NCBI GenBank assembly: GCA_016929525.1 | Contig: JAFGIP010000008.1 | Span: forward strand, 34,749 to 98,748 | Direction of reading: 5' to 3' | Origin: Bacteroidales bacterium | GTDB lineage: Bacteria > Bacteroidota > Bacteroidia > Bacteroidales > UBA10428 | DNA length: 64,000 nt | In this document: positions 3,618 through 30,077 of the stretch, piece after piece | Numbering within the stretch: position 1 is the first letter of the stretch | Layout of the letters: each line of letters begins with the position of its first letter | Notes under the pieces: model-generated | What the model saw: the letters and a program-made list of their open reading frames with translations, nothing else | The model's database searches: none | Told to the model about the DNA's origin: nothing | Translations under genes and position numbers: made by a program

Positions 3618-6600
3618 TTCTTAAAATATTTTTCACCTTTTTCTCTTGCCACATGCTATATAACACCGGGACCACGAATATTGTGAGTACCTGTATGATC
3701 ATACCTCCGAATGAAGGAATAGCCATAGGCACCATTATATCCGAACCTTTACCAGTTGATGTTAGAACCGGAATAAGAGCAATAATAGTTGTTGCTGTTG
3801 TCATCATTGCAGGACGCACCCTGATCTGACCAGCCTCGAGAACAGCGTTTCTCACTTCACTAACTGATGCCGGTTTATTTCTTTCGAATATCTGCATCAG
3901 GTACGTAGCTATTAAAACACCATTATCGGTTGCGATTCCAAATAGTGCTATAAAGCCCACCCAGACTGCAACACTTAAATTAATCGTATGCATCTGGAAC
4001 ATCTCACGAAGTCCAATTCCGGCAACATTGAAGTTCATGAACCAGTGTTGCCCGTAAAGCCAGATCATAATAAATCCACCTGTGAAAGCAACGATTATTC
4101 CTGTAAAGATCATAGATGATGTAGTGACCGATCTGAACTGGAAATACAAAATCAGAAATATTATAATGAGTGAAACGGGAACAACCAACATTAATCGTTT
4201 GGTTGCCCTGATCTGATTTTCATAATTCCCGGTAAAAACATAACTGACACCTTTTGGAATTTTGAATTCACCGTAGTTTATTTTTTCATTTAAATATTTC
4301 TGCGCATTTACAACAACGTCAACTTCTGCCTGACCTTCCTTTTTGTCAAAGATCACATAACTCACAAGAAATGTACCTTCACTTTTTATAAGCTGCGGAC
4401 CACGCACGTAAGTAATATCAGCCAGTTCGCCAAGAGGGATCTGAGCACCTGTCGGAGTTGGTATGAGAACATTTTCCAGATCGTCGGGATTATCCCTGTA
4501 CTCTCTTGCATATCGTGCCCTGATCGGGAAACGTTCTCTGCCTTCGACCGTAGTACTTAGTTTCATTCCTCCGATCGCCCCGCTTAAATAAGTATTCATA
4601 TCCTGAATTGTCAAACCATATCTTGAAATAGTTTTTCTATTGATTTTAATTTCAAGGTAAGGTTTTCCAACTACCCTGTCGGCAAATACAGAAGCAGGCT
4701 CAATGCCGGAAACCTGTTTAAGATAGTTTTCAAGCTTATATCCAACCTCCTCGATAGTCTTCAGATCGGGTCCAAAAACTTTAATCCCCATAGGAGCCCG
4801 CATACCGGTTTGTAACATGACCAGTCTAGTTTGTATAGGCTGTAACTTTGGTGCAGAAGTTAAACCCGGAACCTTTGATTTCTGTACAATCTCATCCCAG
4901 ATATCATCAGGAGATTGTATATGATCACGCCACTGACGAAAGTATTCACCCTTTTTATCTACAATTAATTGACTGATATCAATTTCTCTGAATTCATCGG
5001 TTTTCGGATTGTATGTTGATCCGTCTTTAAACATAAAGGATTCGTCTTTATCAACCTTAAAACGTAAGCGATGACCATTCTCATTGACCACGTACTCCGG
5101 TTTATAGTTGATAACATTCTCAAACATGGATATCGGAGCCGGATCAAGTGCCGAATTAACCCTTCCCCACTTGCCTACAACACTTTCTACTTCAGGAATA
5201 GAATTAACATTTAAGTCAACCTGCCTTATTACTTCAATATTTTCCCCGATACCGGAATGCGGCATCGTTGTGGGCATGAGCAAAAACGACCCTTCATCTA
5301 ATGATGGCATAAACTCCTTTCCTGTACCGGGAAAAACTTTTTCAAAGGATTGCCACGCCCTTAATGATTTTAATTTATCGGGTAAAAATCCAAAAAGCCT
5401 GTCTGCTCCCTGCCAGGTTAGTATTCCGAATAAAACAACTACAATCGGTATGCTTAAGAATTTCCATTTGTTATTCAGGCACCATTGCAAGATTCGCGTG
5501 TAATAACGTACAATCATCATTAGTGCCCCTAATACAACAGCGATGATCGCTACCACAAACAAGAAATTCATGAGCAAGCTGTTACCAGCACCAAGAGGCA
5601 TCCATTCACGAGTGAGAAAATACACAACAACCATTAACGTAACAGCTATGTTAATATAGTTGGTGTACTGTTTTTTACCATCAGGCCATTTGTAAGACAA
5701 GAAATTGTTAGCGGCAAGGACAATGAGCGCTGCCGGCAGTAATGAAGGTGTTATAATTATTGCCACCACACCAAAAACCGCTAACCCTGCACTTATATAC
5801 CGGATGGTCTTTTGCTTATTAAACTTTACCGAGAATATTAAATGAGCCAGTGTTGGAATGATTATCAGTCCAATGACTAATGCCGATAACATTGCAAAAG
5901 TCTTGGTAAAGGCCAGAGGTTTGAAAAGTTTTCCTTCAGCAGCCTGCATGAAGAATACGGGCAGGAAGCTCACTACTGTTGTGGTAAGTGCTGTTATTAC
6001 GGCAGATGCAACTTCAGTCACCGCATCATATATCACGATTAACAACTGCTTTCCTTTTACTCCGATATTTTGGGTCATATCCAGATGCCGAATGATATTT
6101 TCCGTGAACACGACCCCCACATCAACCATCACTCCTATGGCAATGGCAATACCCGACAAGGCAACAATATTGGCATCCACACCGAACCGGCGCATAATAA
6201 TAAAAGTCATTAGCACACCAATAGGCAACAGACTTGATATTAAAAATGATGCTCTCAGATTAAGTACCAGGATGATCACTACAATAATACTTATAAGTAT
6301 TTCCAGTGATAAAGCTTCTTCCAGTGTACCAAGCGTTTCTTTTATCAGTCCCGTTCGATCGTAAAATGGTACTACAGTCACTTTTGAAACAGTTCCATCA
6401 TCCAGAATCTTTGATGGCAGTCCGGGCTCAATTTCAGCAATTTTAGCTTTGACATTGTTAATTACTTCCAGAGGATTAGCACCATACCTCGCGACAACAA
6501 CACCGCCTACAGCTTCTGCACCATCTTTGTCAAGACCACCACGACGTGTTGCCGGGCCATAATTTACAACTGCAACATCCTTAATCCTGACAGGTACATT

Positions 6601-7410
6601 ATCTTTAACCGCGACAACGCTTTCTTCCAGATCACTGATATTTTTTATATATCCCAATGATCTTACCAGGTATTCAGCCCGGTTAAACTCTATTGTTCTG
6701 GCACCAATATCAAGGTTACTTTTTTTAACAGCCTGCAGTATCTGTGCAACATTAACTCCATATGCCTTCATGGCATTTGGGTCGATATCGACCTGGTACT
6801 CTTTTACAAATCCACCTATGGACGCAACTTCAGCCACACCTTTGGCAGAGGTTAGTGAGTAACGCACATAGAAATCCTGTATCGTTCTAAGTTCATGCGG
6901 GTCCCAGCCACCAGCCGGCTTTCCGTGTTTATCCCTCCCTTCCAGAGTATACCAGTAAATCTGTCCCAAAGCTGTTGCATCAGGACCTAGAGAAGGGTTA
7001 ACATCGTCAGGTAATGTGCCGGCCGGAAGTGAGTTTAACTTCTCGAGAATGCGGGTACGGCTCCAGTAAAATTCAATATTCTCTTCGAAGATGATATAAA
7101 TACTGGAAAGTCCGAAAATGGAATTGCTTCTGATTGTTTTTACACCAGGGATTCCTAGAAGGGCTGTAGTAAGCGGATAAGAAATCTGATCTTCGATATC
7201 CTGTGGTGATCTTCCGGGCCATTCGGTAAAAACTATTTGCTGGTTTTCTCCAATATCAGGAATAGCATCTACGGGAACAGGATCTCGTAGTATCAACCCT
7301 GATTCCCAGTTAAAAGGTGCATTAGCAATTCCCAACAGAATGAAGATGGAAAGCACTATAAATGTCACCAGTTTATTTTCCAAAAAGAATTTTATGATCT
7401 TATTCAACAT
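3598..7410 (-). CDS. cusA: CusA/CzcA-family heavy-metal RND permease
   Basis: VDAIPDIGENQQIVFTEWPGRSP, LGPDATALG, LSGIAIAIGVMVD, RVRPAMMT motifs. ATG at 7410 preferred over TTG at 7428. Confidence 0.93.
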   Translation of the reverse strand: MLNKIIKFFLENKLVTFIVLSIFILLGIANAPFNWESGLILRDPVPVDAIPDIGENQQIVFTEWPGRSPQDIEDQISYPLTTALLGIPGVKTIRSNSIFGLSSIYIIFEENIEFYWSRTRILEKLNSLPAGTLPDDVNPSLGPDATALGQIYWYTLEGRDKHGKPAGGWDPHELRTIQDFYVRYSLTSAKGVAEVASIGGFVKEYQVDIDPNAMKAYGVNVAQILQAVKKSNLDIGARTIEFNRAEYLVRSLGYIKNISDLEESVVAVKDNVPVRIKDVAVVNYGPATRRGGLDKDGAEAVGGVVVARYGANPLEVINNVKAKIAEIEPGLPSKILDDGTVSKVTVVPFYDRTGLIKETLGTLEEALSLEILISIIVVIILVLNLRASFLISSLLPIGVLMTFIIMRRFGVDANIVALSGIAIAIGVMVDVGVVFTENIIRHLDMTQNIGVKGKQLLIVIYDAVTEVASAVITALTTTVVSFLPVFFMQAAEGKLFKPLAFTKTFAMLSALVIGLIIIPTLAHLIFSVKFNKQKTIRYISAGLAVFGVVAIIITPSLLPAALIVLAANNFLSYKWPDGKKQYTNYINIAVTLMVVVYFLTREWMPLGAGNSLLMNFLFVVAIIAVVLGALMMIVRYYTRILQWCLNNKWKFLSIPIVVVLFGILTWQGADRLFGFLPDKLKSLRAWQSFEKVFPGTGKEFMPSLDEGSFLLMPTTMPHSGIGENIEVIRQVDLNVNSIPEVESVVGKWGRVNSALDPAPISMFENVINYKPEYVVNENGHRLRFKVDKDESFMFKDGSTYNPKTDEFREIDISQLIVDKKGEYFRQWRDHIQSPDDIWDEIVQKSKVPGLTSAPKLQPIQTRLVMLQTGMRAPMGIKVFGPDLKTIEEVGYKLENYLKQVSGIEPASVFADRVVGKPYLEIKINRKTISRYGLTIQDMNTYLSGAIGGMKLSTTVEGRERFPIRARYAREYRDNPDDLENVLIPTPTGAQIPLGELADITYVRGPQLIKSEGTFLVSYVIFDKKEGQAEVDVVVNAQKYLNEKINYGEFKIPKGVSYVFTGNYENQIRATKRLMLVVPVSLIIIFLILYFQFRSVTTSSMIFTGIIVAFTGGFIMIWLYGQHWFMNFNVAGIGLREMFQMHTINLSVAVWVGFIALFGIATDNGVLIATYLMQIFERNKPASVSEVRNAVLEAGQIRVRPAMMTTATTIIALIPVLTSTGKGSDIMVPMAIPSFGGMIIQVLTIFVVPVLYSMWQEKKVKNILRNEKHEE

Positions 7411-7518
7411 ATCTTTTGTATTTGGCAATTATTCTTTATTATGAAAATTGACTAAGATGAATATGCAACAGGGTAACAGATAATCATATTACCTTGCAAA
7501 ATCAGTTAAGCAGAATAA

Positions 7519-7893
7519 TTAACACAGAAACGTCTGGAAAAAGGAAAGAATGTTTTTAGAAATTTTTGCCGGAGGCGGATGTTTGTATTCTATAACAGAA
7601 TTTTCACTTCCCTGCAAATTAATATCGTTAAAAATGAAAAATACAGGAGTCAGCAGATCCTTCTCAACTATTTTACAGTCATCAGCAATTAAAGGCTCTA
7701 CATATTTATCTTTCACTTCAATGTGGAAGGTTATATCCTCACAGCAACCTACCATGTTACAACACGATCTTGTTTCGCTGTTAACGGATGCGGAAACCAG
7801 TTTCCCCCCACAATAATGCATAGATAGTGTTATTCCGGTAGTTGCTGCCAGAAGAAGAATAACCAAAACAATATGTATTGTTTTTCTAAGCAT
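7519..7893 (-). CDS. HYC_CC_PP family protein (small, metal-locus-associated)
   Basis: N-terminal hydrophobic segment, MHYCGG, two CC pairs, C-terminal HPPP; first gene of the heavy-metal efflux operon. Confidence 0.8.
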   Translation of the reverse strand: MLRKTIHIVLVILLLAATTGITLSMHYCGGKLVSASVNSETRSCCNMVGCCEDITFHIEVKDKYVEPLIADDCKIVEKDLLTPVFFIFNDINLQGSENSVIEYKHPPPAKISKNILSFFQTFLC

Positions 7894-9005: not shown

Positions 9006-9944
9006 TGTTAATTATTTTTATGTAAGAAAATGTTAAGTTTATTATTGCTTACATCCCGTTATTTTCTACATGTATTTTAGTCAATGTTAAGTTATTAGAA
9101 ATTTTAATAACTGCGAAAATTACGAATTAATAGCAAATTAATAAAATATTTTAATTTTCAAATTAACTTACCTATCAGTTCTGAACTTAGACATGAATTT
9201 CATAATACCAGTAACTGGAAAAATCAGACTTTCCATCTGGTTTCTATACAGATATACTCAAAAAAAGGATCATTCTTTTATCATTTCTTCTGGTGCAATA
9301 AATCTGATTATCTGTTCGCCACCAGAGGTTAAGGTTAAAGTCATCCTGGAAAAGAAATTAGAAGGATATATTTAAATACTCCGCATCTGATAAAAGATAT
9401 AAAGTATATATATTATTTAAAAAAGAAACCACTTGAACAATTAATGAACATTCCCGCTGTGCTCTGTTGCAGTAACCAGTCATAGTGCATAAAACAGACA
9501 TACGGGGTATCAGGAATAATTATTTGTTTCGCCCCAGATCCTCGGGAGAGTAGTTTCAGCGCTCGCGGAAGGAGCGGGATATAATATCCTTTAAAAACCG
9601 TAAATATTTTAACCCGGAGGGCGGGTATGCATATCATTTTGTAGTTAATAGATAAAGAGAGGGAGTTTATGACCGCACATATTATTAATTTTTTCACGAT
9701 AATATACCATAACGTCGAATTGACAAAAATCCTTAACTTAACTTTTTTTTCATTATTTTTTCAGACTATCAAGTAATCCCATTTCACTATGAAGCATGTT
9801 ATTAAGTTTTTATTGGGAGCCCTGATTTTTTTTAATTTGAAAAGTTATATGCAGGATTGGGATAAGGTAGTAACAGGTTATAAAAGAGATGACTTCTAAA
9901 CATAAATAATCAATTTCATGATATTCTGAAAACAATTTAGGAAA

Positions 9945-12254
9945 ATGGGAAAAATAGCAGATAAATATTTTAAACTGGATCCCTGGGCAATTATCGAGGA
10001 AGGTTTTGATCCAATACACGGAAAAGTTGCTGAATCAATATTTTCACTGGGAAATGAATATATGGGGGCCCGGGGTTATTTTGAAGAAGGCTATAGTGGA
10101 CCAAAACATGTTGGCAGCTATTTCAACGGATTTTACGAAAGTTCAGAAGTATCTCATCCTGCTGTTTACAAAGGCTTTGTTCTTACCAATGTCGATCTTA
10201 CAAATTCTGTCGATTGGTTGCACGTTAGGATTTCCCTGGATGGTGAATTACTGGATATCGCCAAAAGTAAAATACAGAATTTCAAACGCAAACTGGAATT
10301 AAAAACAGGTACTCTAACACGTGAGTTTACCTGGAATACACAATCGGGCAAAAAAGTAAAAGTAGTATTCGAGCGTTTTACAAGCATGATTTGCAATAAT
10401 TTAGGCGGCCAGAAAGTTACTTTTGAACCCATTAATTTTTCGGGTAAATTAAAAATAATTTCCGGCCTTGACTTCTCAATACACGAAGAGAAACTTCCCG
10501 AAGGCAATATGGTCTGCCTCAGAAAAGAAAAACATGAGGATATATTTGCGGCGCTTGGACAAACCAGGAAAAGCAAATTGAGCCTTTTTTCAAGCTTCAG
10601 GATAGATGCTTCTGAGAAAATCAATCACAAGACTGTTCAGGATGACTTACGATTCGGGACAGAATTCACGCTGAACTTAAAAGAAGGTACTCCGTCCTCC
10701 TTCTCGAAAATAGTTATAAACTACGCTGATAAGAAAGAAAAGGCCGATGCTGATGAGGTGTGGAAAAAAGGTATGTCAGTTGCGGAAAAATACAAAACAA
10801 TTACATACGAAACTGCACACAAGGAACACATATCATTTTGGGAGGACGTTTGGAACAACTTCGATATTGTAATCGATGGTGACGATAAAAATCAGCAGGG
10901 AATACGATACTGTATCTATCAGATGCATCAGACTTATCATGGTCAGGACCCAAGTTTAAATATCGGTGCCAAAGGATTGACAGGCGAAGCATACGGAGGT
11001 AAGGCATTTTGGGATACCGAAGCGTATTGTCTTGCATTCTATATTTTCAATAATCCCACAGCCGCCCTTAACCTGTTAAAGTACAGATATAATTTCCTTC
11101 CGCAAGCTATTGCCCGTGCCAAACAACTCGATTGTAAAGGTGCATGCTATCCGATTGCCACCATCGATGGCCATGAAAATAGTGCGTTATGGCAACACAG
11201 CAGCATTCAGATTCATGTAAGTGGATCGGTAGCCTTTGGTATTTCGCAGTATGCCAGTGTAACCAAAGACAAAGAATTCCTTTATAAAGAAGGAATTGAA
11301 ATGCTGCTCCAGATTGCGCGTTTCTATGCAAGCAGGGCCCAGCAGGATCCTGAAACCAATGAATATGGCTATTATGGCGTAATGGGAGTTGATGAATTTC
11401 ATATGATGGTAAATAACAACTGCTTTGTGAACTATATGGGAAAGAAATCGATGGAATTCGCTCTCGATGTGGTTAATGAAATGAAAACTTCGGCACCTCA
11501 GAAATTAAAAGAAGTGGAAAAGAAAATCGATCTTCAGCTTTCTGAGCTGACGGAATGGGAGCAGATGTGTAAAAATATGGCAATGCCACAGGATAACGAA
11601 ACTGGAGTGTATGAGGAACACGATGGTTATTTCAGATGGCCGCACATTGATATTCATTCGATACCTGTTGAAGATTTCCCTTTGTACCATAACTGGTCGT
11701 ACGACAGGATATATCGTTACGATATGATTAAACAACCGGATGTATTGATGATGATGTTTTTATATAACCAGGATTTCAGTCAAAATATAAAAAAGGTGAA
11801 TTACGAATTTTATGAACCAAGGTGCATTCATGAGTCGTCGCTTTCACCATCGGTACATTCAATACTTGCGGCCGAAATCGGTAAACATGATGAAGCATCG
11901 GAATTTTTCGGATTTGCAACCCGGTTAGATCTCGATGATTATAACCGCAATACATTCGAAGGTTTACATTTAACATCGATATCAGCAGCCTGGATGAATA
12001 TTGTTTTTGGATTTGGCGGGATGCGTACAGATGGAGATATTCTCGTTTTTGCCCCCTCAATTCCTAAAACCTGGAAATCATTTTCTTTCCGCATTATATA
12101 TCAGGAAGCAACACTGAATATTACTGTTGATAAAACCAAGGCCCGGTTTAAAACCAATGGAACAACTGTAACGTTAAAAATATACGGCAAAACTTATTCT
12201 ATTGGCTCTGAAGAGGTAAGCATTGATATTCCTGACTTTTATATTGCTAAATAA
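9945..12254 (+). CDS. GH65 glycoside phosphorylase (maltose/trehalose/kojibiose phosphorylase-like)
   Basis: IGAKGLTGEAYGG..FWDTE, catalytic G(V)DEFH, KQPDVL and HESSLS motifs; adjacent to beta-phosphoglucomutase. Confidence 0.92.
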   Translation: MGKIADKYFKLDPWAIIEEGFDPIHGKVAESIFSLGNEYMGARGYFEEGYSGPKHVGSYFNGFYESSEVSHPAVYKGFVLTNVDLTNSVDWLHVRISLDGELLDIAKSKIQNFKRKLELKTGTLTREFTWNTQSGKKVKVVFERFTSMICNNLGGQKVTFEPINFSGKLKIISGLDFSIHEEKLPEGNMVCLRKEKHEDIFAALGQTRKSKLSLFSSFRIDASEKINHKTVQDDLRFGTEFTLNLKEGTPSSFSKIVINYADKKEKADADEVWKKGMSVAEKYKTITYETAHKEHISFWEDVWNNFDIVIDGDDKNQQGIRYCIYQMHQTYHGQDPSLNIGAKGLTGEAYGGKAFWDTEAYCLAFYIFNNPTAALNLLKYRYNFLPQAIARAKQLDCKGACYPIATIDGHENSALWQHSSIQIHVSGSVAFGISQYASVTKDKEFLYKEGIEMLLQIARFYASRAQQDPETNEYGYYGVMGVDEFHMMVNNNCFVNYMGKKSMEFALDVVNEMKTSAPQKLKEVEKKIDLQLSELTEWEQMCKNMAMPQDNETGVYEEHDGYFRWPHIDIHSIPVEDFPLYHNWSYDRIYRYDMIKQPDVLMMMFLYNQDFSQNIKKVNYEFYEPRCIHESSLSPSVHSILAAEIGKHDEASEFFGFATRLDLDDYNRNTFEGLHLTSISAAWMNIVFGFGGMRTDGDILVFAPSIPKTWKSFSFRIIYQEATLNITVDKTKARFKTNGTTVTLKIYGKTYSIGSEEVSIDIPDFYIAK

Positions 12255-12301
12255 TTTTAATTGACTATCAAAAATCATACACATAACGAACTGAAAAGTA
12301 A

Positions 12302-12365
12302 GACATTCCTGCGCAGGCAGGAATCCAGTCAAAATACCTGGATTCCGTGTCAAGCACGGAATAAC
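12302..12365. repeat. REP-like composite palindromic element
   Basis: ATTCCTGC-GCAG-GCAGGAAT hairpin, CCAG-N9-CTGG, then ATTCCGTG-TCAAG-CACGGAAT hairpin; GC-rich within an AT-rich intergenic region. Confidence 0.75.
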
Positions 12366-12454
12366 CCATAATATAGATGTAAATTATTCTTGAATCAATA
12401 CTAATTTATTTTATATAACCTGAAAAAGTAACAAGCTGATTAAATATATTTTAA

Positions 12455-13105
12455 ATGATTAAAGGAGTAATTTTCGATTTAGACGGAGTGATTGTTTCAA
12501 CCGACGAATTCCATTACCAGGCATGGCAACAGATGGCCGACGAAGAAGGTATTTATTTCGATCGTCATATCAACGAGCGTTTGAGAGGGGTAAGCCGCAT
12601 GGAAAGCCTTGAAATAATACTGGAAAGAGCAAGAAAACAGTATTCCGAAGATCAAAAAACTGAATTGGCAACCCGGAAGAACAATTACTATAAAGTATTA
12701 CTGGACACTCGTTTATCACCAAAAGACATACTTCCCGGAGTTATGAAAGTTTTAACCGACCTGAAGAATAGCAATATAAAAATTGCAATTGGTTCTTCGA
12801 GTCGTAATTCTCCGTCAATATTGAAACATATAGACCTGGAAGCATTCTTTGATGCCACAGCCGATGGCAATGATATCAAAAAAAGCAAGCCGGACCCTGA
12901 AGTGTTTTTAATCGCAGCTCAGCGATTAGGATTAGAACCTGATGAATGTGTAGTAGTAGAAGATGCCGAAGCCGGTATAACTGCGGCACTGAATGGCGGT
13001 ATGAAAGCGCTTGCTGTGGGTTCTGCTATCTCGGATAAAAGAGCTCATTTTGCTGCAAAAGATCTTGCTGAAATAACCATCGATCAAATCATCAACATTT
13101 CTTAA
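12455..13105 (+). CDS. pgmB: Beta-phosphoglucomutase (HAD superfamily)
   Basis: FDLDGV, HYQAW, LRGVSRMESL, SKPDPEVF, VEDAEAG motifs. Confidence 0.95.
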   Translation: MIKGVIFDLDGVIVSTDEFHYQAWQQMADEEGIYFDRHINERLRGVSRMESLEIILERARKQYSEDQKTELATRKNNYYKVLLDTRLSPKDILPGVMKVLTDLKNSNIKIAIGSSSRNSPSILKHIDLEAFFDATADGNDIKKSKPDPEVFLIAAQRLGLEPDECVVVEDAEAGITAALNGGMKALAVGSAISDKRAHFAAKDLAEITIDQIINIS

Positions 13106-16357: not shown

Positions 16358-18004
16358 TTAAATGCCGCCACGTGATTGAATACGAGCCCTAAACCTGAAA
16401 GCCTTTTCAATCACATCCAGTCTTGCTTTCCTGGGATCGGGCTTTCCGACAATTTTACCATCTGGCTGGATATCGAGTATCTCTTCATTTTCAGTGTTGT
16501 AATCGGGCCAAAGCGGCAGCCCTTTACCATTGGGATCACCGGTTTTGGCAAAGTTAACCCAATAGGCGTTCAACATTTGTGCTACCTTTTCATCTTCAGG
16601 TGTTGTTTCAGGGGCACCCCAACGTGCATCGAGATTGTTAAATACGTAGGTGATTTCTGACCCGTGTCCGGCGCCAAACTGCATCCGCTCCTGCATTGCG
16701 GCGGGGACATAACCATAATGGTAGATGAAAGCCGGTTCTCCATTGGCGACAATAGCCCTTGCGGCAAAACGGGCCGGTTCAGCCCATACCCAGTCTGTGT
16801 TAAACCTGGTGATTATTTCAGCAAACTCTTTGTCTCCATCAGGATCATAGGCAGTTTTTGCCTCATCCTCCAGTTCGCCGAACAGTGAAAACAGTTCTTC
16901 TTTTGAACTGCTGGAATTAACAAAACTTCCACCTATTTCGGCACTACAATTTCCGATTATTAGCGGAACCTTTGCCTGCCTGCCTGCCTTGTATGCACTC
17001 TCAGCAGTTTCTACAACAAGTTTACCATCGAGAATCGGGCCTGAATAAATACGCGGACCTCCCTGACCATCAGTTTCCTGACCTCCGTCCACAATCTCCT
17101 CTGCGCTCAGGGCGCGAAGCTTAGCCAGTGCGGCTGCATCCGTATCCTCTATACCATGTTTGCCGGCAAAATTTACTCCGATTGTTTCGGCTGAAACGGG
17201 GTAAAGAGGATCAGCATTTTCTTTATTCATCGACCTACCTGTAAGAACACCATCCCTGCCACCTCCGGATTCACTGATTGCTTTATGGAAAAGGCCTTTG
17301 GCATCAGGTATGGTCATGAGTGAATGTACTGATACGCCACCGGCAGAGAAACCGAAAATAGTAACATTGTTCGGGTCACCACCGAATGCGGCAATGTTTT
17401 GCTGTACCCAACTGAGTGCTGCAATCTGGTCCATAAAAGCATAACTACCCTTTGGTTCATCAGGATATTCCTCGCTTAAGGCCGGAAATGCAAAATGACC
17501 GAGACGTCCCAAACGATAGTTGAAAGTCATTAAGATTACACCTTGTTTGGCAAATTCTTCACCTGATGTAGCTGGTCCTGCCCCGCTACCCCCTAGAAAA
17601 GCGCCTCCATGAATCCATACCATAACAGGAAGCTTAGCTTTTGGCTTGGTTCCGGCAGGGATCCACAAATTAAGGTACAGGCAATCCTCTGATGAGCCTT
17701 CCGTAATTGACCCGGGAGCTGCTCCCCATCCTGCCTGCGCACAATTGGCTCCAAACTCGGTGGCATTCCGAATGCCTTCCCAAGGAGTTACAGGTTGCGG
17801 AGGACGCCAGCGAAATTCACCTACAGGAGGAGCAGCATAGGGAATTCCTTTATAACTCGTAACTTCTCCTTCAGTTATACCTTTAACGATTCCGGAGGCA
17901 ATGCTTACTATAGGCAACGATTCCGGAGTATCATTATAAATTGATTGCTGTGCAAATAAATTGCAACCGGTAATAATGACTAAACTCGTTAGAATTTTTT
18001 TCAC
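16358..18004 (-). CDS. Type-B carboxylesterase/lipase, secreted (GTG start)
   Basis: GIPYAAPPVG..RWRPP, SEDCLYLN, WIHGG, FGGDPNNVTIFGFSAGG nucleophile elbow, AGHGSE. Confidence 0.92.
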   Translation of the reverse strand: MKKILTSLVIITGCNLFAQQSIYNDTPESLPIVSIASGIVKGITEGEVTSYKGIPYAAPPVGEFRWRPPQPVTPWEGIRNATEFGANCAQAGWGAAPGSITEGSSEDCLYLNLWIPAGTKPKAKLPVMVWIHGGAFLGGSGAGPATSGEEFAKQGVILMTFNYRLGRLGHFAFPALSEEYPDEPKGSYAFMDQIAALSWVQQNIAAFGGDPNNVTIFGFSAGGVSVHSLMTIPDAKGLFHKAISESGGGRDGVLTGRSMNKENADPLYPVSAETIGVNFAGKHGIEDTDAAALAKLRALSAEEIVDGGQETDGQGGPRIYSGPILDGKLVVETAESAYKAGRQAKVPLIIGNCSAEIGGSFVNSSSSKEELFSLFGELEDEAKTAYDPDGDKEFAEIITRFNTDWVWAEPARFAARAIVANGEPAFIYHYGYVPAAMQERMQFGAGHGSEITYVFNNLDARWGAPETTPEDEKVAQMLNAYWVNFAKTGDPNGKGLPLWPDYNTENEEILDIQPDGKIVGKPDPRKARLDVIEKAFRFRARIQSRGGI

Positions 18005-25369: not shown

Positions 25370-26554
25370 TTAAATAAAGGTGATCTTTACTTTTTTCAGG
25401 AATTTTTCCTCAAGGATCAGCGCTATTCTTTTAACTACAGTTCTGCGTATTTCAAGTTCTACTCCCAAATCAGGATTCTGATGTGCCAGGTTAATTCGTG
25501 TTCCTATCAGAAACATTATCTCATTACTCTCAATTATATGTTTTACAATAAGGTCGGCAGGTCCTTTCCCCGGAGCATAGTTGTTGTTATACTTCATCAG
25601 AATCTTTTCAACCTTGCTGAGTGTAAGTATGCCTTCCGTATACAAATCAATTCCTTCCATATACGAAAGCGGTGGCAGATCGCGATCTGTGATCTCCTGT
25701 CCATTTTCGATCTTGATATTCAGTTCGCGTGCAATAATATCACCCGTTGTGGCACCCATTATAATTTTCTTCCCGCTAAATTCTTTCACCTGTTTTGCCA
25801 TTGCCGAATCACGAGAGTTATCATATGGTGGTCCGGTGCAAATTAACAACTCCCGGGGTTCTCTTAAATACACAATTCCGCATGATGTGTCGTCTTTTGC
25901 CTGAAAGCCGTCGTTTCTCAGAGAAGTATTTACTATTCGTGATGCCAGTTCATTTGCCGATATCTTCGGATTCCGTTTTGTCATGTCAATTGCAAAACGC
26001 GCTACATTATCGTTTCCCCAGCCAAAAGGAAAGCGCGGTGTACCTAATCCCGACTGAGTAACACCATCGGTAGTAAATATCAAGCGGTCATCCTTTTTAG
26101 CCTGGAAGCGTGCAACCCGCAGTTTCTTACCTGCATTGGATTCACCTTCAAGAATGATATTCCTGCGCCCGATTTCCATAACTTTCTTATCCCTGATAAC
26201 AATACACTCCGGATTATCATATTCCAGTATATTCGTAGACCCATCATAATCAATTTCGATAATTGTAAAGGTCGAATAATTCATTTTTCTTTCTCTGCAC
26301 TCCGGCAAAGTCTTCATAATTATTTCGGCTGTCTTCTCCGGTTCTTTATGTTCTTTGGTAAAATTCAGTGCCATTTTCGCAGTTAGTGTTGCAAGCACGC
26401 TGGCTTTAATTCCATGCCCCATCCCGTCGGATAATACGAGTACTATCCTGTCTTGCTCACGTACCCTTCCCGTAAGGAATACATCTCCGCATATACGTTC
26501 GCCATCATGATTTTTTTGCTGGCAATCTACCTCTATAAAAAACCTTTCCTGCAT
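25370..26554 (-). CDS. SpoIIE/PP2C-type Ser/Thr phosphatase (HfsC-like)
   Basis: ERICGD, LSDGMGHG, TDGV and DDTSC metal motifs; C-terminal GPP...TEGILTL domain; downstream of the hydrogenase-like sensor. Confidence 0.88.
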   Translation of the reverse strand: MQERFFIEVDCQQKNHDGERICGDVFLTGRVREQDRIVLVLSDGMGHGIKASVLATLTAKMALNFTKEHKEPEKTAEIIMKTLPECRERKMNYSTFTIIEIDYDGSTNILEYDNPECIVIRDKKVMEIGRRNIILEGESNAGKKLRVARFQAKKDDRLIFTTDGVTQSGLGTPRFPFGWGNDNVARFAIDMTKRNPKISANELASRIVNTSLRNDGFQAKDDTSCGIVYLREPRELLICTGPPYDNSRDSAMAKQVKEFSGKKIIMGATTGDIIARELNIKIENGQEITDRDLPPLSYMEGIDLYTEGILTLSKVEKILMKYNNNYAPGKGPADLIVKHIIESNEIMFLIGTRINLAHQNPDLGVELEIRRTVVKRIALILEEKFLKKVKITFI

Positions 26555-26561
26555 TTTTTTG

Positions 26562-26647
26562 TTGTTAAATTGTTGAACTGTTGAATCGTTAATTTATTTT
26601 GTCATCCTACATTAATTAAACAATAACACAGTTAAACAATTACACAT
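26562..26647. repeat. Two degenerate 8-mer tandem arrays in roughly inverted orientation
   Basis: TTGTTAAA TTGTTGAA CTGTTGAA TCGTTAAT (26562-26593) and TTAAACAA TAACACAG TTAAACAA TTACACAT (26616-26647). Confidence 0.6.
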
Positions 26648-26648
26648 T

Positions 26649-28502
26649 TTATTTAGGTTTATCCTGCTCATAGAACTTAATCACCGAATTCAGCATTTTT
26701 TCTATATCCGAAGCTCCTTCACCCATAAGAAATCCTATCTGCTGAACCATTTCAAGGTTTTTATCGATGACTTCCGAAACACGTTTAATCACTTCTGCTC
26801 TCTGAACCTCGGGAGCTTTCATATCCCGAACAATACCTCCGGCTAACTGATTTTCGACTATCGGAAAGATTGAAAGATTCAGCAAAGAATCATTATGAAT
26901 TACATCTCTGGTATCAATAGGTTCGGAGTTCGTTATTACGAATGAAAACAGGTTATATATCTCTGGTGAGAAGAGTTTTTTCAAATCAGCACCAACAAGT
27001 CCGGGAATAACTTCATTAATTTCCCTGGCCTCCTCACCAAGTATTCTGCTAAATGTATTGTTGGCTTTAACAATTTTCAGTTGATAATCAACAACCACAA
27101 TGCCAGCTCTTAAATTATCAAGAATTGCATTTGTGAGTTCCTGTGCCTGATGTGCTGAATCATGCTCCGAACGTACCTTTTCTTCCGACTCCTGAAGTGC
27201 CTTTCTTGTTTTAGTAATTTTCTCGTTAAGTTCTTTAAGAGATTCATCGTAGTTCTTTGTATTTCGTACAGCATATGCGTGGCACATTTCAGGTACTACG
27301 ATGCCTTTTGCCATATCAACAGCAAATTCTTCACAGGTCGAATATCCGCATTGCTGACAATTAGAATAATCATCATCCTTTTTACCAAGTATCTGCAGAG
27401 CTTCTTCTATCTTTTCTTTGGGGGGGGGTGGCAAACGTTGGTCATTGGCCTTATAAGAACGTTTAAAATCTAATGAACCATATTCATCCAGGTCGTTATA
27501 CCACTCGGCACGGAAAAAGTTTTTGATCCGTTTATTTGCATATTTTATTATGAGATGTTCTTTAAGAAGTTTATTCCCGCGACTGGTAATCCCCGGCCCG
27601 GATAAAGCATTTCCGTATGTTACATGTAAATGCCGGTGAATTACTTTGACATTATTTTCGAATTCACGAATTGATTCAAGCATAGCTGTTTTACCTTCGA
27701 CACTAATAACATGTGTAGTAAGCAGGTTCTCGTCAATATCTGCTGCCTGAATAAGTCCGTTTCTTAATGGATAAAGTGAACCTTTAAAACCCAGGGGTGC
27801 ATCAAAATCTGAATAATCTACTATGTTTTCATCTATATTAAATTCCTTGAAAAGTTTTCTCAGTTCTGGAAATATAATCATGCAGTCGATTTTACCATCA
27901 TCATTATATAATAGAATCTCATCCTTATCAGCGATATTTGAACCTATGTAAATAATTTTAGCTTTGTCACCATGCTTCTTATGAATAACTTTAGCCATTG
28001 CTATTTTAGGTGAAATAAAAGGAGTAAGATTATTGATCAGATTAGGATGGTACTTTTCTATATAATTCACTACAACAGGGTCAAAAGAAGTTATGTAATA
28101 TCTGCCCTTAAAATCACTAAATAAATTAAGGTACTTCATTGCAATCAGGTCGGCACCGAATGAAAGTTCGTAAACATGAGCGATGCCTAATGATTTAATC
28201 ATTTGCACAAACTTGCGATAATCGGTTATATCATCAAATTCGGCTGCTATACCTGTTGATACAATTGCAGCAACTTCCTTGTTCAATTTCAGGATATTCT
28301 TTGCCTCTTCTATCGATGATCGGTATTCGATTGCATTTGGAGCGCAAGAATCAACACAAGCCCCGCAACCTATACACCTGTTTATATTGATCTCCGGAGA
28401 TAATCCATTCGGAACTGCCCTTATTGCTTTTACCGGACAAATTCTGACACAGGTAAAACAGTTGGTACATTTATCGGGTAATATTTCTACTAAAGGTTTC
28501 AA
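26649..28502 (-). CDS. Sensory [FeFe]-hydrogenase-like (HydS/HfsB-like) PAS protein lacking H-cluster cysteines
   Basis: 2x[4Fe-4S] motifs (CTNCFTCVRICP, CIGCGACVDSC), hydrogenase large-subunit scaffold (FGAD, YIEKY.P.L, SP), FeS motif CQQCGYSTC..C, coiled coil, PAS. Confidence 0.85.
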   Translation of the reverse strand: MKPLVEILPDKCTNCFTCVRICPVKAIRAVPNGLSPEININRCIGCGACVDSCAPNAIEYRSSIEEAKNILKLNKEVAAIVSTGIAAEFDDITDYRKFVQMIKSLGIAHVYELSFGADLIAMKYLNLFSDFKGRYYITSFDPVVVNYIEKYHPNLINNLTPFISPKIAMAKVIHKKHGDKAKIIYIGSNIADKDEILLYNDDGKIDCMIIFPELRKLFKEFNIDENIVDYSDFDAPLGFKGSLYPLRNGLIQAADIDENLLTTHVISVEGKTAMLESIREFENNVKVIHRHLHVTYGNALSGPGITSRGNKLLKEHLIIKYANKRIKNFFRAEWYNDLDEYGSLDFKRSYKANDQRLPPPPKEKIEEALQILGKKDDDYSNCQQCGYSTCEEFAVDMAKGIVVPEMCHAYAVRNTKNYDESLKELNEKITKTRKALQESEEKVRSEHDSAHQAQELTNAILDNLRAGIVVVDYQLKIVKANNTFSRILGEEAREINEVIPGLVGADLKKLFSPEIYNLFSFVITNSEPIDTRDVIHNDSLLNLSIFPIVENQLAGGIVRDMKAPEVQRAEVIKRVSEVIDKNLEMVQQIGFLMGEGASDIEKMLNSVIKFYEQDKPK

Positions 28503-28576
28503 TAATTCTGAAATTTAATGCTCCATTAAAGTTATTTTAATTCTTACTCGGTGCAAGATTTAATTATTATCGGTTA

Positions 28577-28837
28577 TTATTGTTTTATATACTCTGCTAA
28601 TCCCGTATCAAGTATTTTTTCTATGTTTTCACTCGAAATTTTCTGAAATAACCGTGTCCCGATGAACAGGTTTGGCCCCTCGCTGCAGTTGCCGCTGCAA
28701 TGATCTCCTTTAAATTCGACTTTATCTTCAAGTTGTCTTACTTTAATATATTTTTGAATCCGGGCAATCATTTGCTGATTACCCCTTGCAAAACAAGAGC
28801 TGCCTAAGCAAATTGTGATCTTAACTTTACGCAACAT
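28577..28837 (-). CDS. Thioredoxin-like [2Fe-2S] ferredoxin (NuoE/HfsA-like)
   Basis: ICLGSSCFARGN...HCSGNCSEGPN; all four Cys ligands present. Confidence 0.88.
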   Translation of the reverse strand: MLRKVKITICLGSSCFARGNQQMIARIQKYIKVRQLEDKVEFKGDHCSGNCSEGPNLFIGTRLFQKISSENIEKILDTGLAEYIKQ

Positions 28838-28970
28838 TATATTAATGTTTGGAAGTTCTGAATATAACCAATTTTAGTGTTTAAAAAAATACTGCCCTGA
28901 AAATCCATCCAATTTCCAATAATAACTATTTTAGTCGAACGAAAGCAATTGCTTTTAGTTAAACTCTGCA

Positions 28971-29594
28971 ATGAAAAAACTACCTGAAAAAACCGTCGAG
29001 AGACTTAGCGAATACCGGAGAACATTATATCAATGTCTTGATGAAGGGAAAACAAAAATTTATTCTCATGAATTGGCTGATCTGCATAACATTACAGCTG
29101 TTCAGGTGAGGCGCGATATTATGTTTATCGGATACTCAACCAGGCAGCGTAAAGGGTACGACGTTGAAGAGCTCATCAATGTTATCAGCAAGATTATTGA
29201 TACCCGGGAAGAGATGAACGTAGCAGTTATAGGATTAGGAAACCTTGGCAAAGCCATTTCAACTTACTTTATTGGCAAACGTGCCAAGCTAAATCTGGTT
29301 GCAACATTCGATCTTGATCCCAAGAAAATTGGCAGTAAAACAGGTGAAGTTGAATGTTATTCCATCGACCGGCTCAGAGAAATTGTAGTAAGTAAGAACA
29401 TTTCAATTGCAATTCTGACAGTTCCGACCTACTCGGCTAAGGATGCAGTTAAAGCATTAGTACAAACAGGGATAAAGGGAATTCTGAATTTTACTACTGT
29501 AAATCTTAATGTACCAAAAGATATTTACCTTGAAGAATATGATATGATAACTTCTCTTGAAAAAGTGGCTTATTTCGTTAAGCATATTAAATAA
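28971..29594 (+). CDS. rex: Redox-sensing transcriptional repressor Rex
   Basis: LPEKTVERLSEY, S.ELA..QVRRD..G...GY.V, VIGLGNLGKA Rossmann motif, GIKGILNFT. Confidence 0.92.
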   Translation: MKKLPEKTVERLSEYRRTLYQCLDEGKTKIYSHELADLHNITAVQVRRDIMFIGYSTRQRKGYDVEELINVISKIIDTREEMNVAVIGLGNLGKAISTYFIGKRAKLNLVATFDLDPKKIGSKTGEVECYSIDRLREIVVSKNISIAILTVPTYSAKDAVKALVQTGIKGILNFTTVNLNVPKDIYLEEYDMITSLEKVAYFVKHIK

Positions 29595-29600
29595 TTAACG

Positions 29601-30077
29601 ATGCCGGGGTTAAATTTCTGCTCTACTGTAATCTTTGTAAAGAATATTGAAGCTTCCATGAAGTTTTATATTGAAATATTAAATCAGGTAATTAAACATG
29701 ACTTCGGATTGAATATCATGTTTAAAAGCAATCTTTCTTTATGGCAGATCAGCGATTCTCATGAGATAAGTTCAGTTGCAGGATCAAGTAATAAAGAAAA
29801 CAAGTTTGAACTTTATTTCGAGACAGATGATATTGATAAGGAAGCTTCCAGGTTAAAACTCCAAAAAGTTAAATTCTTTCATGATATTAAAACCGAACCC
29901 TGGGGGCAGAAAACGATCAGATTCTTCGATCCCGACAGCCACCTGATAGAAATCGGTGAAGAATTCAGTATTTTCCTTCGGCGTATCTTTCTGGAAACCG
30001 GCTCTCTAAAAGAAACATCTAGAAAAACAGGAGTTCAGGTGAATCTGATAAGAGAAACCCTGAAGCTTTCAAAATAA
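29601..30077 (+). CDS. VOC/glyoxalase family protein
   Basis: VKNIEASMKFY, ELYFE, EPWGQKTIRFFDPDSHLIEIGE. Confidence 0.85.
   Translation: MPGLNFCSTVIFVKNIEASMKFYIEILNQVIKHDFGLNIMFKSNLSLWQISDSHEISSVAGSSNKENKFELYFETDDIDKEASRLKLQKVKFFHDIKTEPWGQKTIRFFDPDSHLIEIGEEFSIFLRRIFLETGSLKETSRKTGVQVNLIRETLKLSK

Follow-up and report, generated by a model that had tools for sequence, protein, structure and literature searches.

A hydrogenase-like sensor without H-cluster ligands, conserved beside a phosphatase and a Rex paralog in a family of Bacteroidales

The sensory [FeFe]-hydrogenases of group C3, which include HydS of Thermotoga maritima and Ruminococcus albus and HfsB of Thermoanaerobacterium saccharolyticum, were defined as phosphatase-linked putative sensors (PMC5037454). 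The HydS/HfsB family is described as a putative H2 sensor in PMC5037454, PMC8924675 and PMC5707799. The review PMC8924675 terms the sensory role of these hydrogenases putative, and there is genetic evidence for a regulatory action of the hfs genes (PMC5707799). Here we analyse a related locus from a Bacteroidales bacterium, carried on a stretch of contig JAFGIP010000008.1 that we call the window (the whole 64,000 nucleotides (nt) of DNA analysed). The source is a metagenome-assembled genome that is 97.7% complete with 3.9% contamination. The locus consists of an operon of three minus-strand genes, encoding a [2Fe-2S] ferredoxin, a hydrogenase-like sensor and a PP2C phosphatase, and of a divergent rex gene. 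A sequence-only reading of this DNA had noted that the sensor has lost every cysteine that holds the H-cluster while its other iron–sulphur (FeS) sites and its partners are kept, and had taken this to suggest, in place of random decay, a repurposed redox or ligand sensor (or decoy partner) that is blind to H2, feeds a Ser/Thr phosphatase and is linked to Rex.

Loss of the H-cluster ligands

The genes of the locus and the parts of the sensor are listed below with their window coordinates; ORF denotes an open reading frame and aa amino acids.

28577-28837, minus strand: thioredoxin-like [2Fe-2S] ferredoxin of 86 aa, opening the operon (ORF)
26649-28502, minus strand: hydrogenase-like sensor, 617 aa, TTG start, HydS-derived (ORF)
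25370-26554, minus strand: SpoIIE/RsbU-type PP2C phosphatase, 394 aa (ORF; PF07228)
28971-29594, plus strand: Rex paralog (RexA), 207 aa, divergent from the operon (ORF; NF003995)
28293-28502, minus strand: F-domain, sensor residues 1-70, with two [4Fe-4S] motifs (Pfam Fer4, twice)
27468-28292, minus strand: H-domain without cluster ligands, sensor residues 71-345 (PF02906, E 1.3e-27)
28077-28094, minus strand: L1 remnant of the sensor, ITSFDP (translation)
27918-27944, minus strand: L2 remnant of the sensor, GSNIADKDE (translation)
27591-27620, minus strand: L3 remnant of the sensor, TYGNALSGPG (translation)
27282-27365, minus strand: C-terminal Cx2Cx4Cx16C [4Fe-4S] motif of the sensor (C382, C385, C390, C407), containing CQQCGYSTC (PF04060)
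27117-27281, minus strand: long helix, sensor residues 408-462, likely a coiled coil or signalling helix (structure model)
26652-27116, minus strand: PAS domain and conserved C-terminal helix, sensor residues 463-617 (PAS_8)

In [FeFe]-hydrogenases, the [4Fe-4S] part of the H-cluster is bound by four cysteines, which also bridge to its [2Fe] part. The importance of these residues for cluster binding and [2Fe] insertion is the concern of PMC5855289. None of the four is present in the sensor. When it is aligned to P0122, its nearest intact relative (48-49% identity, equal length and architecture), the ligand columns hold D141, N189, G297 and, depending on the alignment, a gap or A299. HMMER alignments to solved hydrogenases likewise place 'tsfdp' under 'tsccp' and 'gs...niadkde' under 'mpctakkfe'. 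In L1, Asp141 takes the place of the ligand cysteine and Phe140 that of the preceding, proton-transfer cysteine. In L2 the ligand is replaced by Asn189, with Lys193 and Glu195 retained. In L3 the first ligand has become Gly297, and the second has gone by a one-residue deletion or is aligned to Ala299. The sequence-only reading had given the three motifs exactly as listed, and both translations and alignments agree with it on the loss of all ligands; for L3 one correction applies, the second cysteine corresponding to the deletion or A299 and not to S301. The HydA protein encoded by the same genome is canonical at all three motifs (TSCCPGW, MPCLAKKYE and EIMACPGGCIGGGG).

The loss is common to a large set of cysteine-less (Cys-less) homologs. 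Cysteine is found at columns 141, 189, 297 and 299 in 0 of 132 Cys-less sequences, as against 47 of 47 intact sisters. The single cysteine left in the H-domain of the sensor, C207, lies in a column that is cysteine in 27% of the 132 clade members; no H-domain column exceeds 45% cysteine, and 14 of the 132 have no cysteine in this domain at all. Other cysteines taking over the H-cluster positions, a result that would have told against the sequence-only reading, can therefore be ruled out, since no conserved substitute occupies the site. With no ligand cysteine and one ligand position deleted, the sensor is predicted from its sequence to be unable to bind an H-cluster; it would hence be H2-blind at that site and could not itself react with H2.

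The remainder of the protein is that of a group C3 sensor, with an N-terminal pair of [4Fe-4S] motifs, a C-terminal four-Cys motif and a PAS domain. Pfam finds Fer4 twice, Fe_hyd_lg_C (residues 76-282, E 1.3e-27), PF04060 (380-407) and PAS_8 (458-502), and the PF02906 score of 97.5 bits (cut-off 22.1) identifies the H-domain fold. The best NCBIfam hydrogenase subfamily model, TIGR04105, gives 128 bits against a cut-off of 450, so that the curated models do not accept the sensor as a hydrogenase. All 12 cysteines of the three [4Fe-4S] motifs are kept (residues 12, 15, 18, 22, 43, 46, 49, 53, 382, 385, 390 and 407). Their columns are 96-100% conserved among the 132 Cys-less sequences, and those of the C-terminal four-Cys motif are cysteine in 100% of both the Cys-less and the four-Cys sets. 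The PAS/C-terminal helix part holds an invariant block, IGF..GEGA...E..LNS, in the alignment of relatives. The ORFs, frames and domains of the sequence-only reading, and its statement that the other FeS sites are kept, are thus borne out by ORF calls, Pfam, NCBIfam and motif conservation. Database labels for proteins of the clade (NCBI, JGI) read only 4Fe-4S binding protein or iron-only-hydrogenase-like.

An AlphaFold2 (AF2) model of the sensor built with 91 homologs has a predicted local distance difference test score (pLDDT) of 88.6, with the H-domain mostly above 90 and residues 408-462 forming one helix. The best Foldseek match of this model is 8zqd_A (E 1.7e-20, 430 aligned columns), and the top matches among those listed are all [FeFe]-hydrogenases (8zqd_A, then HydA of HydABC, DdH and CpI). 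In the predicted structure, then, the hydrogenase fold is retained despite the lost cofactor site.

A word-indexed search returned 1055 proteins at E ≤1e-5 among 8000 scored candidates; among the matches listed (120, being the query and 119 proteins at 56-72% identity, mostly labelled Bacteroidales) all are without the ligands. In an exhaustive search of representatives at 50% identity, 4 of the best 150 are Cys-less (P0121 and the partial P0124, P0135 and P0168) and the others are mostly intact sensors. Sensor loci from species-representative genomes, 80 in number, comprise 14 of the main Cys-less form, 2 of a second Cys-less type, 17 with three ligand cysteines and 47 intact ones. In a maximum-likelihood (ML) tree from a quick search (LG+G4), in which deep branches are weak, the 18 Cys-less rows all fall together (SH-aLRT 87). 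Within it the main Cys-less clade (16 rows) has 100% support, and it is nested among intact Bacteroidales HydS-like proteins. This position in the tree places the sensor in group C3 and indicates that it descends from HydS/HfsB.

The Cys-less form also runs through the GTDB family to which the genome belongs, where 63 of 77 genomes match the sensor at E ≤1e-30. We fetched the 59 family loci with at least 55% identity for checking (the sensor's own genome being extra). These orthologs, from 59 further family genomes and 55-72% identical to the sensor, have Asp in L1, Asp, Glu, Asn or Gln in L2 and no cysteine at the L3 ligand positions in 59/59 cases. With the own genome included, a checked Cys-less ortholog is thus present in 60 of 77 family species genomes and in 7 of 8 genera. 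No stop falls within the alignment in 58 of the 59, the exception being L146 (genome G045) with one stop inside; another genome, G072, carries only a 98-aa end fragment of the sensor. A genome with 8% contamination, G039, holds a Cys-less copy together with a fragment of a four-Cys paralog (L186, G039:C53; 44% identity).

What replaces the ligands is strongly patterned across the 132 Cys-less sequences: the L1 column is Asp in 132/132, the L2 column is D in 63, E in 44 and N in 25, and the first-ligand column of L3 is Gly in 98%. Between this set and the intact one, just nine columns differ in residue while being conserved within each. Synonymous divergence (dS) is saturated in most Cys-less pairs, and we therefore compared non-synonymous divergence (dN) by domain. 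In an unsaturated pair, L020-L022, dN/dS is 0.035 overall and 0.038 in the H-domain. Divided by the dN of the whole protein, that of the H-domain gives a ratio of 0.79-1.02 for 7 Cys-less pairs and 0.91-1.40 for 10 intact pairs; being no higher in the former, this ratio indicates that the H-domain is not relaxed. When five parts of the protein are compared, dN is lowest in the PAS/C-terminal part for all but one of the 7 Cys-less pairs; in that one, L018-L019, the H-domain and the coil fall below it. The sensor gene is intact and under purifying selection across the clade. Decay of the gene is excluded by these clade-wide data, as the sequence-only reading had supposed: the orthologs, which might have kept their cysteines, share its Cys-less L1, L2 and L3 in 132 sequences, the trait belongs to a family-level lineage, and the H-domain shows no extra relaxation. 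Since the clade keeps everything but the H-cluster, and keeps it under selection, the FeS/PAS/phosphatase machinery has a function without H2 chemistry.

Two further forms were seen among the Bacteroidales HydS-like proteins. In 17 loci (L032, L033, L036, L044, L047, L053, L061-L063, L076, L078, L081, L086, L088, L090, L093 and L094; sensor gene at ~6001-7850 in most) Asn or Asp stands in place of the first L3 cysteine ('FY[ND]EGC'), and cysteine is retained at the three further ligand positions. All but one of the 17 fall into a single clade (100% support). These loci adjoin hydC-hydB-hydA and have no small [2Fe-2S] gene upstream, and the three-Cys form may represent an Asp-ligated cluster or a step toward loss. 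The second Cys-less type (L054:6001-7854 and L089:6001-7848) has Asp in L1, Val or Leu in L2 and 'FYNE-YLMG' in L3. It is sister to the main Cys-less clade (SH-aLRT 87) and has no adjoining rex, and one of the two loci still lies beside hydCBA.

Conserved partners and hydrogenase genes

We compared neighbourhoods by clustering the ORFs of all loci and scanning representatives against Pfam. The small ferredoxin carries Cys 10, 15, 47 and 51 in a Cx4C...Cx3C ligand pattern and matches PF01257 (E 1.3e-10, 41.7 bits against 24.8), with only the C-terminal half of the model covered. Ligand pattern and family match together mark it as a NuoE/HydC-type [2Fe-2S] ferredoxin, with the four cysteines that the sequence-only reading had described. 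A homolog on the same strand lies upstream of the sensor gene in 59/59 family loci.

The PP2C gene begins 95 nt downstream of the sensor gene, and a PP2C lies on the sensor strand in 54 of 59 family loci, the remaining 5 being cut by contig ends. Its product matches PF07228 with 62.9 bits, and D24, D43, D163, D221 and D222 are invariant in 35 homologs (mean column identity 71%). It therefore has the fold and the metal-binding aspartates of a SpoIIE/RsbU phosphatase, the latter in line with the sequence-only reading. The AF2 model (pLDDT 86.6) divides into a PP2C part (residues 1-231), which matches the RsbU/SpoIIE-type structures 3pu9_B (Z 25.3) and 5ucg_A (Z 23.8), and an additional domain:

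25370-25861, minus strand: PP2C C-terminal domain, residues 233-394, without a Pfam family (AF2 model)

This domain of 160 aa gives a moderate match to 7awt_G, the C-terminal part of NuoG (Z 10.2, root mean square deviation 3.0, 117 aligned), and also resembles FhcB and molybdopterin-oxidoreductase domains (Z 7-8.5). An Atlas search with it found only unnamed clusters (0.89-0.91), which are stand-alone proteins of 151-179 aa. The modelled fold hints at a docking domain for FeS proteins. A complex prediction of sensor residues 346-617 with PP2C scored 0.01 against a mark of 0.32 and counts neither for nor against contact. No STAS or kinase partner gene was found near the PP2C operon.

The adjacent Rex scores 204.3 bits with NF003995 (cut-off 126), matches PF06971 and PF02629, and contains a GLGNLG motif. 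It is hence a Rex protein, with a winged-helix N-terminal domain and a Rossmann NAD(H) domain, and is 64-80% conserved among orthologous loci. Rex proteins are NADH/NAD+ sensors. In 54 of 59 family loci the opposite strand next to the sensor operon carries a rex gene, and the 5 loci without one lie at contig ends. The [2Fe-2S] protein, PP2C and rex are thus conserved neighbours of the sensor, in keeping with the signalling cluster seen by the sequence-only reading. Two further Rex paralogs in the own genome are 45% and 35% identical to the sensor-adjacent one; they lie at G000:C112:33158-33775, near HypB-like nickel-hydrogenase maturation genes, and at G000:C113 around 17264-17392.

The divergent position is occupied differently in the other sensor types. 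In 33 of 47 intact loci the upstream neighbours are a divergent hydC (NuoE-like) and hydB (NuoF-like), followed by H-domain proteins, and 8 of the 14 intact loci without hydC-hydB are cut by contig ends. Divergent hydC-hydB is likewise upstream in 16 of 17 three-Cys loci and, for the second Cys-less type, in one locus out of two. In the main Cys-less clade rex stands in place of hydC-hydB in 15 of 15 loci. The divergent neighbour has thus been swapped, from hydCBA in the intact relatives to a dedicated rex paralog in the Cys-less clade.

Other genes adjoin this locus. Directly after rex, on the same strand, is a glyoxalase-family gene (29601-30077), which is found likewise in the closest relative, L015. 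In one subclade (L020, L022, L023, L024 and L026, at ~9100-13000) the Cys-less operon is followed by a conserved stretch of an unnamed 156-aa gene, electron-transfer flavoprotein (ETF) beta and alpha genes and a 4Fe-4S dicluster protein, another redox module.

The own genome encodes only two H-domain proteins, the sensor and HydA. A PHP-2Fe2S-hydB-hydA-hydC operon lies on the same contig ~35 kb from the sensor operon, with hydE, hydF and hydG further on. The sequence-only reading had raised the presence of an intact HydS paralog and of hydEFG elsewhere in the genome: the maturation genes are there, on the same contig, and an intact HydS paralog was not found in the own genome. Within the family, a HydA-grade match is present in 55 of 61 sensor-positive genomes and HydG in 47 of 61. 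Neither HydA nor HydG is found in 14 of 16 sensor-negative genomes, including all 8 of one genus and 5 of the own genus, and HydA occurs in 2 of the 16. This co-occurrence with HydA and HydG suggests that the protein still works in connection with the hydrogenase system. The sensor has probably been repurposed in its input and not in its subject, which would still be hydrogenase and redox control.

Many genomes with a Cys-less sensor also hold an ORF of 450-476 aa with a weak H-domain match (64-90 bits) ~5-6 kb from hydA, for example G003:C168:12621-13310 and G008:C38:80513-81202; the own genome has none.

A candidate operator may connect the hydrogenase genes to Rex. The palindrome TTGTTAT-N4-ATAACAA was first found in the rex-sensor spacers of some relatives. 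In the 77 family genomes, TTGTTAW-N4-WTAACAA has 202 copies as against 56 for a reversed control (3.6-fold). The single perfect TTGTTAT-type copy of the own genome (TTGTTATCTAAATAACAA, G000:C112:26519-26536) lies 291 nt upstream of the start of the hyd operon, and block shuffles of this genome yield a mean of 0.03 perfect copies. A one-mismatch copy is found upstream of hydG (G000:C112:6257-6274). Among the matches listed (150 of 404), 10 of 17 HydA-positive genomes have a box 3.0-6.9 kb to the N-terminal side of the HydA H-domain. Intact-sensor loci have a box at ≤1 mismatch in 8 of 66, each in the hydC-sensor spacer. The box resembles the Clostridial Rex operator, TTGTTAA-N4-TTAACAA. Rex regulons reportedly include hydrogenase genes in Clostridia and Thermotogae, as described by Ravcheev et al. 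in 2012.

A redox-sensing reading and its rivals

For the Cys-less protein we favour, at a probability of about 0.55, a functional, H2-blind FeS/PAS redox sensor derived from HydS and tied to hydrogenase control. In such a sensor the FeS relay would be reduced or oxidized directly by low-potential carriers, either ferredoxin or the [2Fe-2S] partner, and not by H2. The redox state would then be passed via the helix, the PAS domain and the C-terminal module to PP2C, which would dephosphorylate a target. Together with the adjacent Rex paralog, this would set the expression or activity of the electron-bifurcating HydABC and fermentative redox balance. A bifurcating hydrogenase uses both the ferredoxin and the NADH pools. 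We infer the signal sensed, the contact with the phosphatase, its target and the role of Rex from synteny and from what is known of HydS.

Several observations weigh against this reading. The first set concerns Rex and the spacer that separates it from the operon:

28838-28970, no strand: divergent spacer between the sensor operon and rex

TTGTTAT-N4-ATAACAA is not found in this spacer, where the best match has 4 mismatches. The 64,000-nt window holds 17 matches at ≤3 mismatches (12 expected), none of them in the spacer, and only 8 of 54 family rex-sensor spacers have a box at ≤1 mismatch. With three Rex paralogs encoded in the genome, the box is not attributable to the one beside the sensor. 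Second, the genome encodes 12 SpoIIE-type phosphatases and one distant RsbW-like kinase. The kinase gene (C108) has YbeY, an M23 peptidase and GidA as neighbours and no STAS gene there, and so gives no lead to the target of PP2C. Third, 14 sensor-positive genomes lack a HydG match although some are 96-100% complete, through either a missed gene or a real absence; and the family genomes are related, not independent, so that the co-loss of sensor and HydA may reflect as few as two events. Fourth, in TamHydS, a group D sensor, the C-terminal cluster is unresponsive to H2 and its authors doubt signalling by redox change (PMC13104023). Hence an FeS-to-PAS relay is unproven even in intact sensors. 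By analogy, the same result may also allow an H2-independent role for the C-terminal cluster.

We do not claim that the sensor operon is under Rex control, because the box is missing from the window spacer and present in only 8/54 of the family spacers. A Firmicute-type operator, TTGTGAA-N4-TTCACAA, was also rejected, with 9 window matches at 3 mismatches against 8.0 expected and none in the spacer. The spacer does contain a perfect 14-bp palindrome, AAAGCAATTGCTTT, at 28943-28956, 15 nt before the rex start codon; it was not seen in those related rex-sensor spacers that were inspected. As for the genomes without a HydG match (G029, G030, G085, G091 and others), several have one or two HydA genes, so that, unless hydG was missed, their maturation may be unusual.

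A scaffold that has ceased to receive any signal is an alternative we think unlikely. The protein would then be a fixed adaptor holding PP2C, and perhaps the [2Fe-2S] protein, with regulation exerted via PAS or by transcription. The lowest dN of the PAS/C-terminal part in 6/7 Cys-less pairs, the few systematic differences from intact sensors (9 sites) and the unresponsive TamHydS cluster (PMC13104023) are consistent with this. Conserving 12 FeS cysteines at 96-100%, along with a [2Fe-2S] partner in 59/59 loci, would however be costly for a pure scaffold, whose H-domain moreover is as constrained as that of intact relatives.

Distinctly unlikely, to our mind, is a more elaborate scheme in which the emptied H-domain has become a new receiver. 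Its L1 Asp and its L2 Asp, Glu or Asn would serve either to bind a metal or metabolite or to hold the fold in a single signalling state. Ferredoxin would be read by the FeS relay, and PP2C would have the dedicated Rex paralog, or a partner of that paralog, as its target, such that the ferredoxin and NADH pools jointly set the level of hydrogenase. Were this true, the locus would, together with the three-Cys clade, document how an H2 sensor was turned step by step into a sensor of redox state.

Still less do we expect that the old H-cluster pocket itself binds another metal ion or a small molecule and that this ligand is what is sensed. The replacements are non-random (Asp in 132/132, Asp/Glu/Asn in 132/132), the adjacent Lys193 and Glu195 are kept, and constraint on the H-domain is undiminished, all of which would suit a new site. 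Only two polar side chains are fixed, however, the other positions being Gly and a deletion or variable residue, and the acidic residues could merely pair with Lys193, filling and stabilizing an empty cavity.

That the sensor perceives H2 indirectly, through contact or electron exchange with a docked catalytic HydABC complex, we hold to be improbable. Its distribution (HydA in 55/61 sensor-positive but 2/16 sensor-negative genomes), the HydC/NuoE-like nature of its [2Fe-2S] partner and the resemblance of the PP2C C-terminal domain to that of NuoG (Z 10.2) point in this direction, but the sensor operon has moved off hydCBA in the Cys-less clade and lies ~35 kb from it in the own genome. Finally, a decaying pseudogene or an assembly artefact can be dismissed: one ortholog (L146) does have a stop inside the alignment and the window comes from a metagenome-assembled genome with some contamination (3.9%), but the frame is intact, 58/59 family orthologs have no stop, the replacements are shared by 132 sequences from many samples, dN/dS is ~0.04 where measurable, and a DNA contig of a public run matches 26748-29594 without differences, though this run may be the source sample.

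Comparison with known systems

A search of the openly available full-text literature, supplementary tables and subscription papers excepted, turned up no account of bacterial HydS homologs that lack the H-cluster cysteines. The accessible parts of PMC12578642, the preprint 10.64898/2026.10.06.756941 (Kiritimatiellia), PMC11216029, PMC5037454, PMC13104023, PMC5707799 and PMC8924675 contain no mention of them. The sensor fails the defining test of an [FeFe]-hydrogenase, the four cysteine ligands of the H-cluster, and should not be filed as one. Metagenomic surveys that count 'sensory hydrogenases' of Bacteroidales by their domains would take in proteins predicted to be unable to bind H2, and caution is due there. 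Forms with four, three or none of the ligand cysteines, 48-51% identical to the query, are natural comparison sets for biochemistry, and the finding should interest the hydrogenase and anaerobe-regulation fields.

Group C3 is the closest described system. The sensor shares its domain order (two [4Fe-4S] motifs, H-domain, Cx2Cx4Cx16C, PAS) and its SpoIIE/PP2C operon partner, and the nearest intact relatives, which lie beside hydCBA, are 48-51% identical to it over the full length. Unlike group C3, it lacks the four H-cluster ligands, one L3 residue being deleted; its divergent neighbour is rex and not hydCBA, and there is no kinase gene in the operon.

Hydrogenase-like proteins without H2 function are known in eukaryotes, and those that PMC8924675 names are the NARF proteins. 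By analogy with Nar1/NARF/IOP1, the sensor combines a hydrogenase fold with the loss of H2 chemistry and another role. Nar1/NARF/IOP1 are eukaryotic factors of cytosolic FeS assembly (CIA) in which the former active site retains FeS-binding cysteines. They are not known to contain a PAS domain or to be partnered by a phosphatase or Rex.

With the Rex regulons that reportedly contain hydrogenase genes, the system shares a Rex gene and a TTGTTAW-N4-WTAACAA palindrome upstream of hyd operons; it differs in that, out of three Rex paralogs, a single one has become fixed beside the sensor operon in divergent orientation. With the RsbU/SpoIIE phosphatases of partner switching it shares the PP2C fold and the catalytic aspartates, whereas the PP2C described here has a NuoG/FhcB-like C-terminal domain in place of the usual N-terminal regulatory domains.

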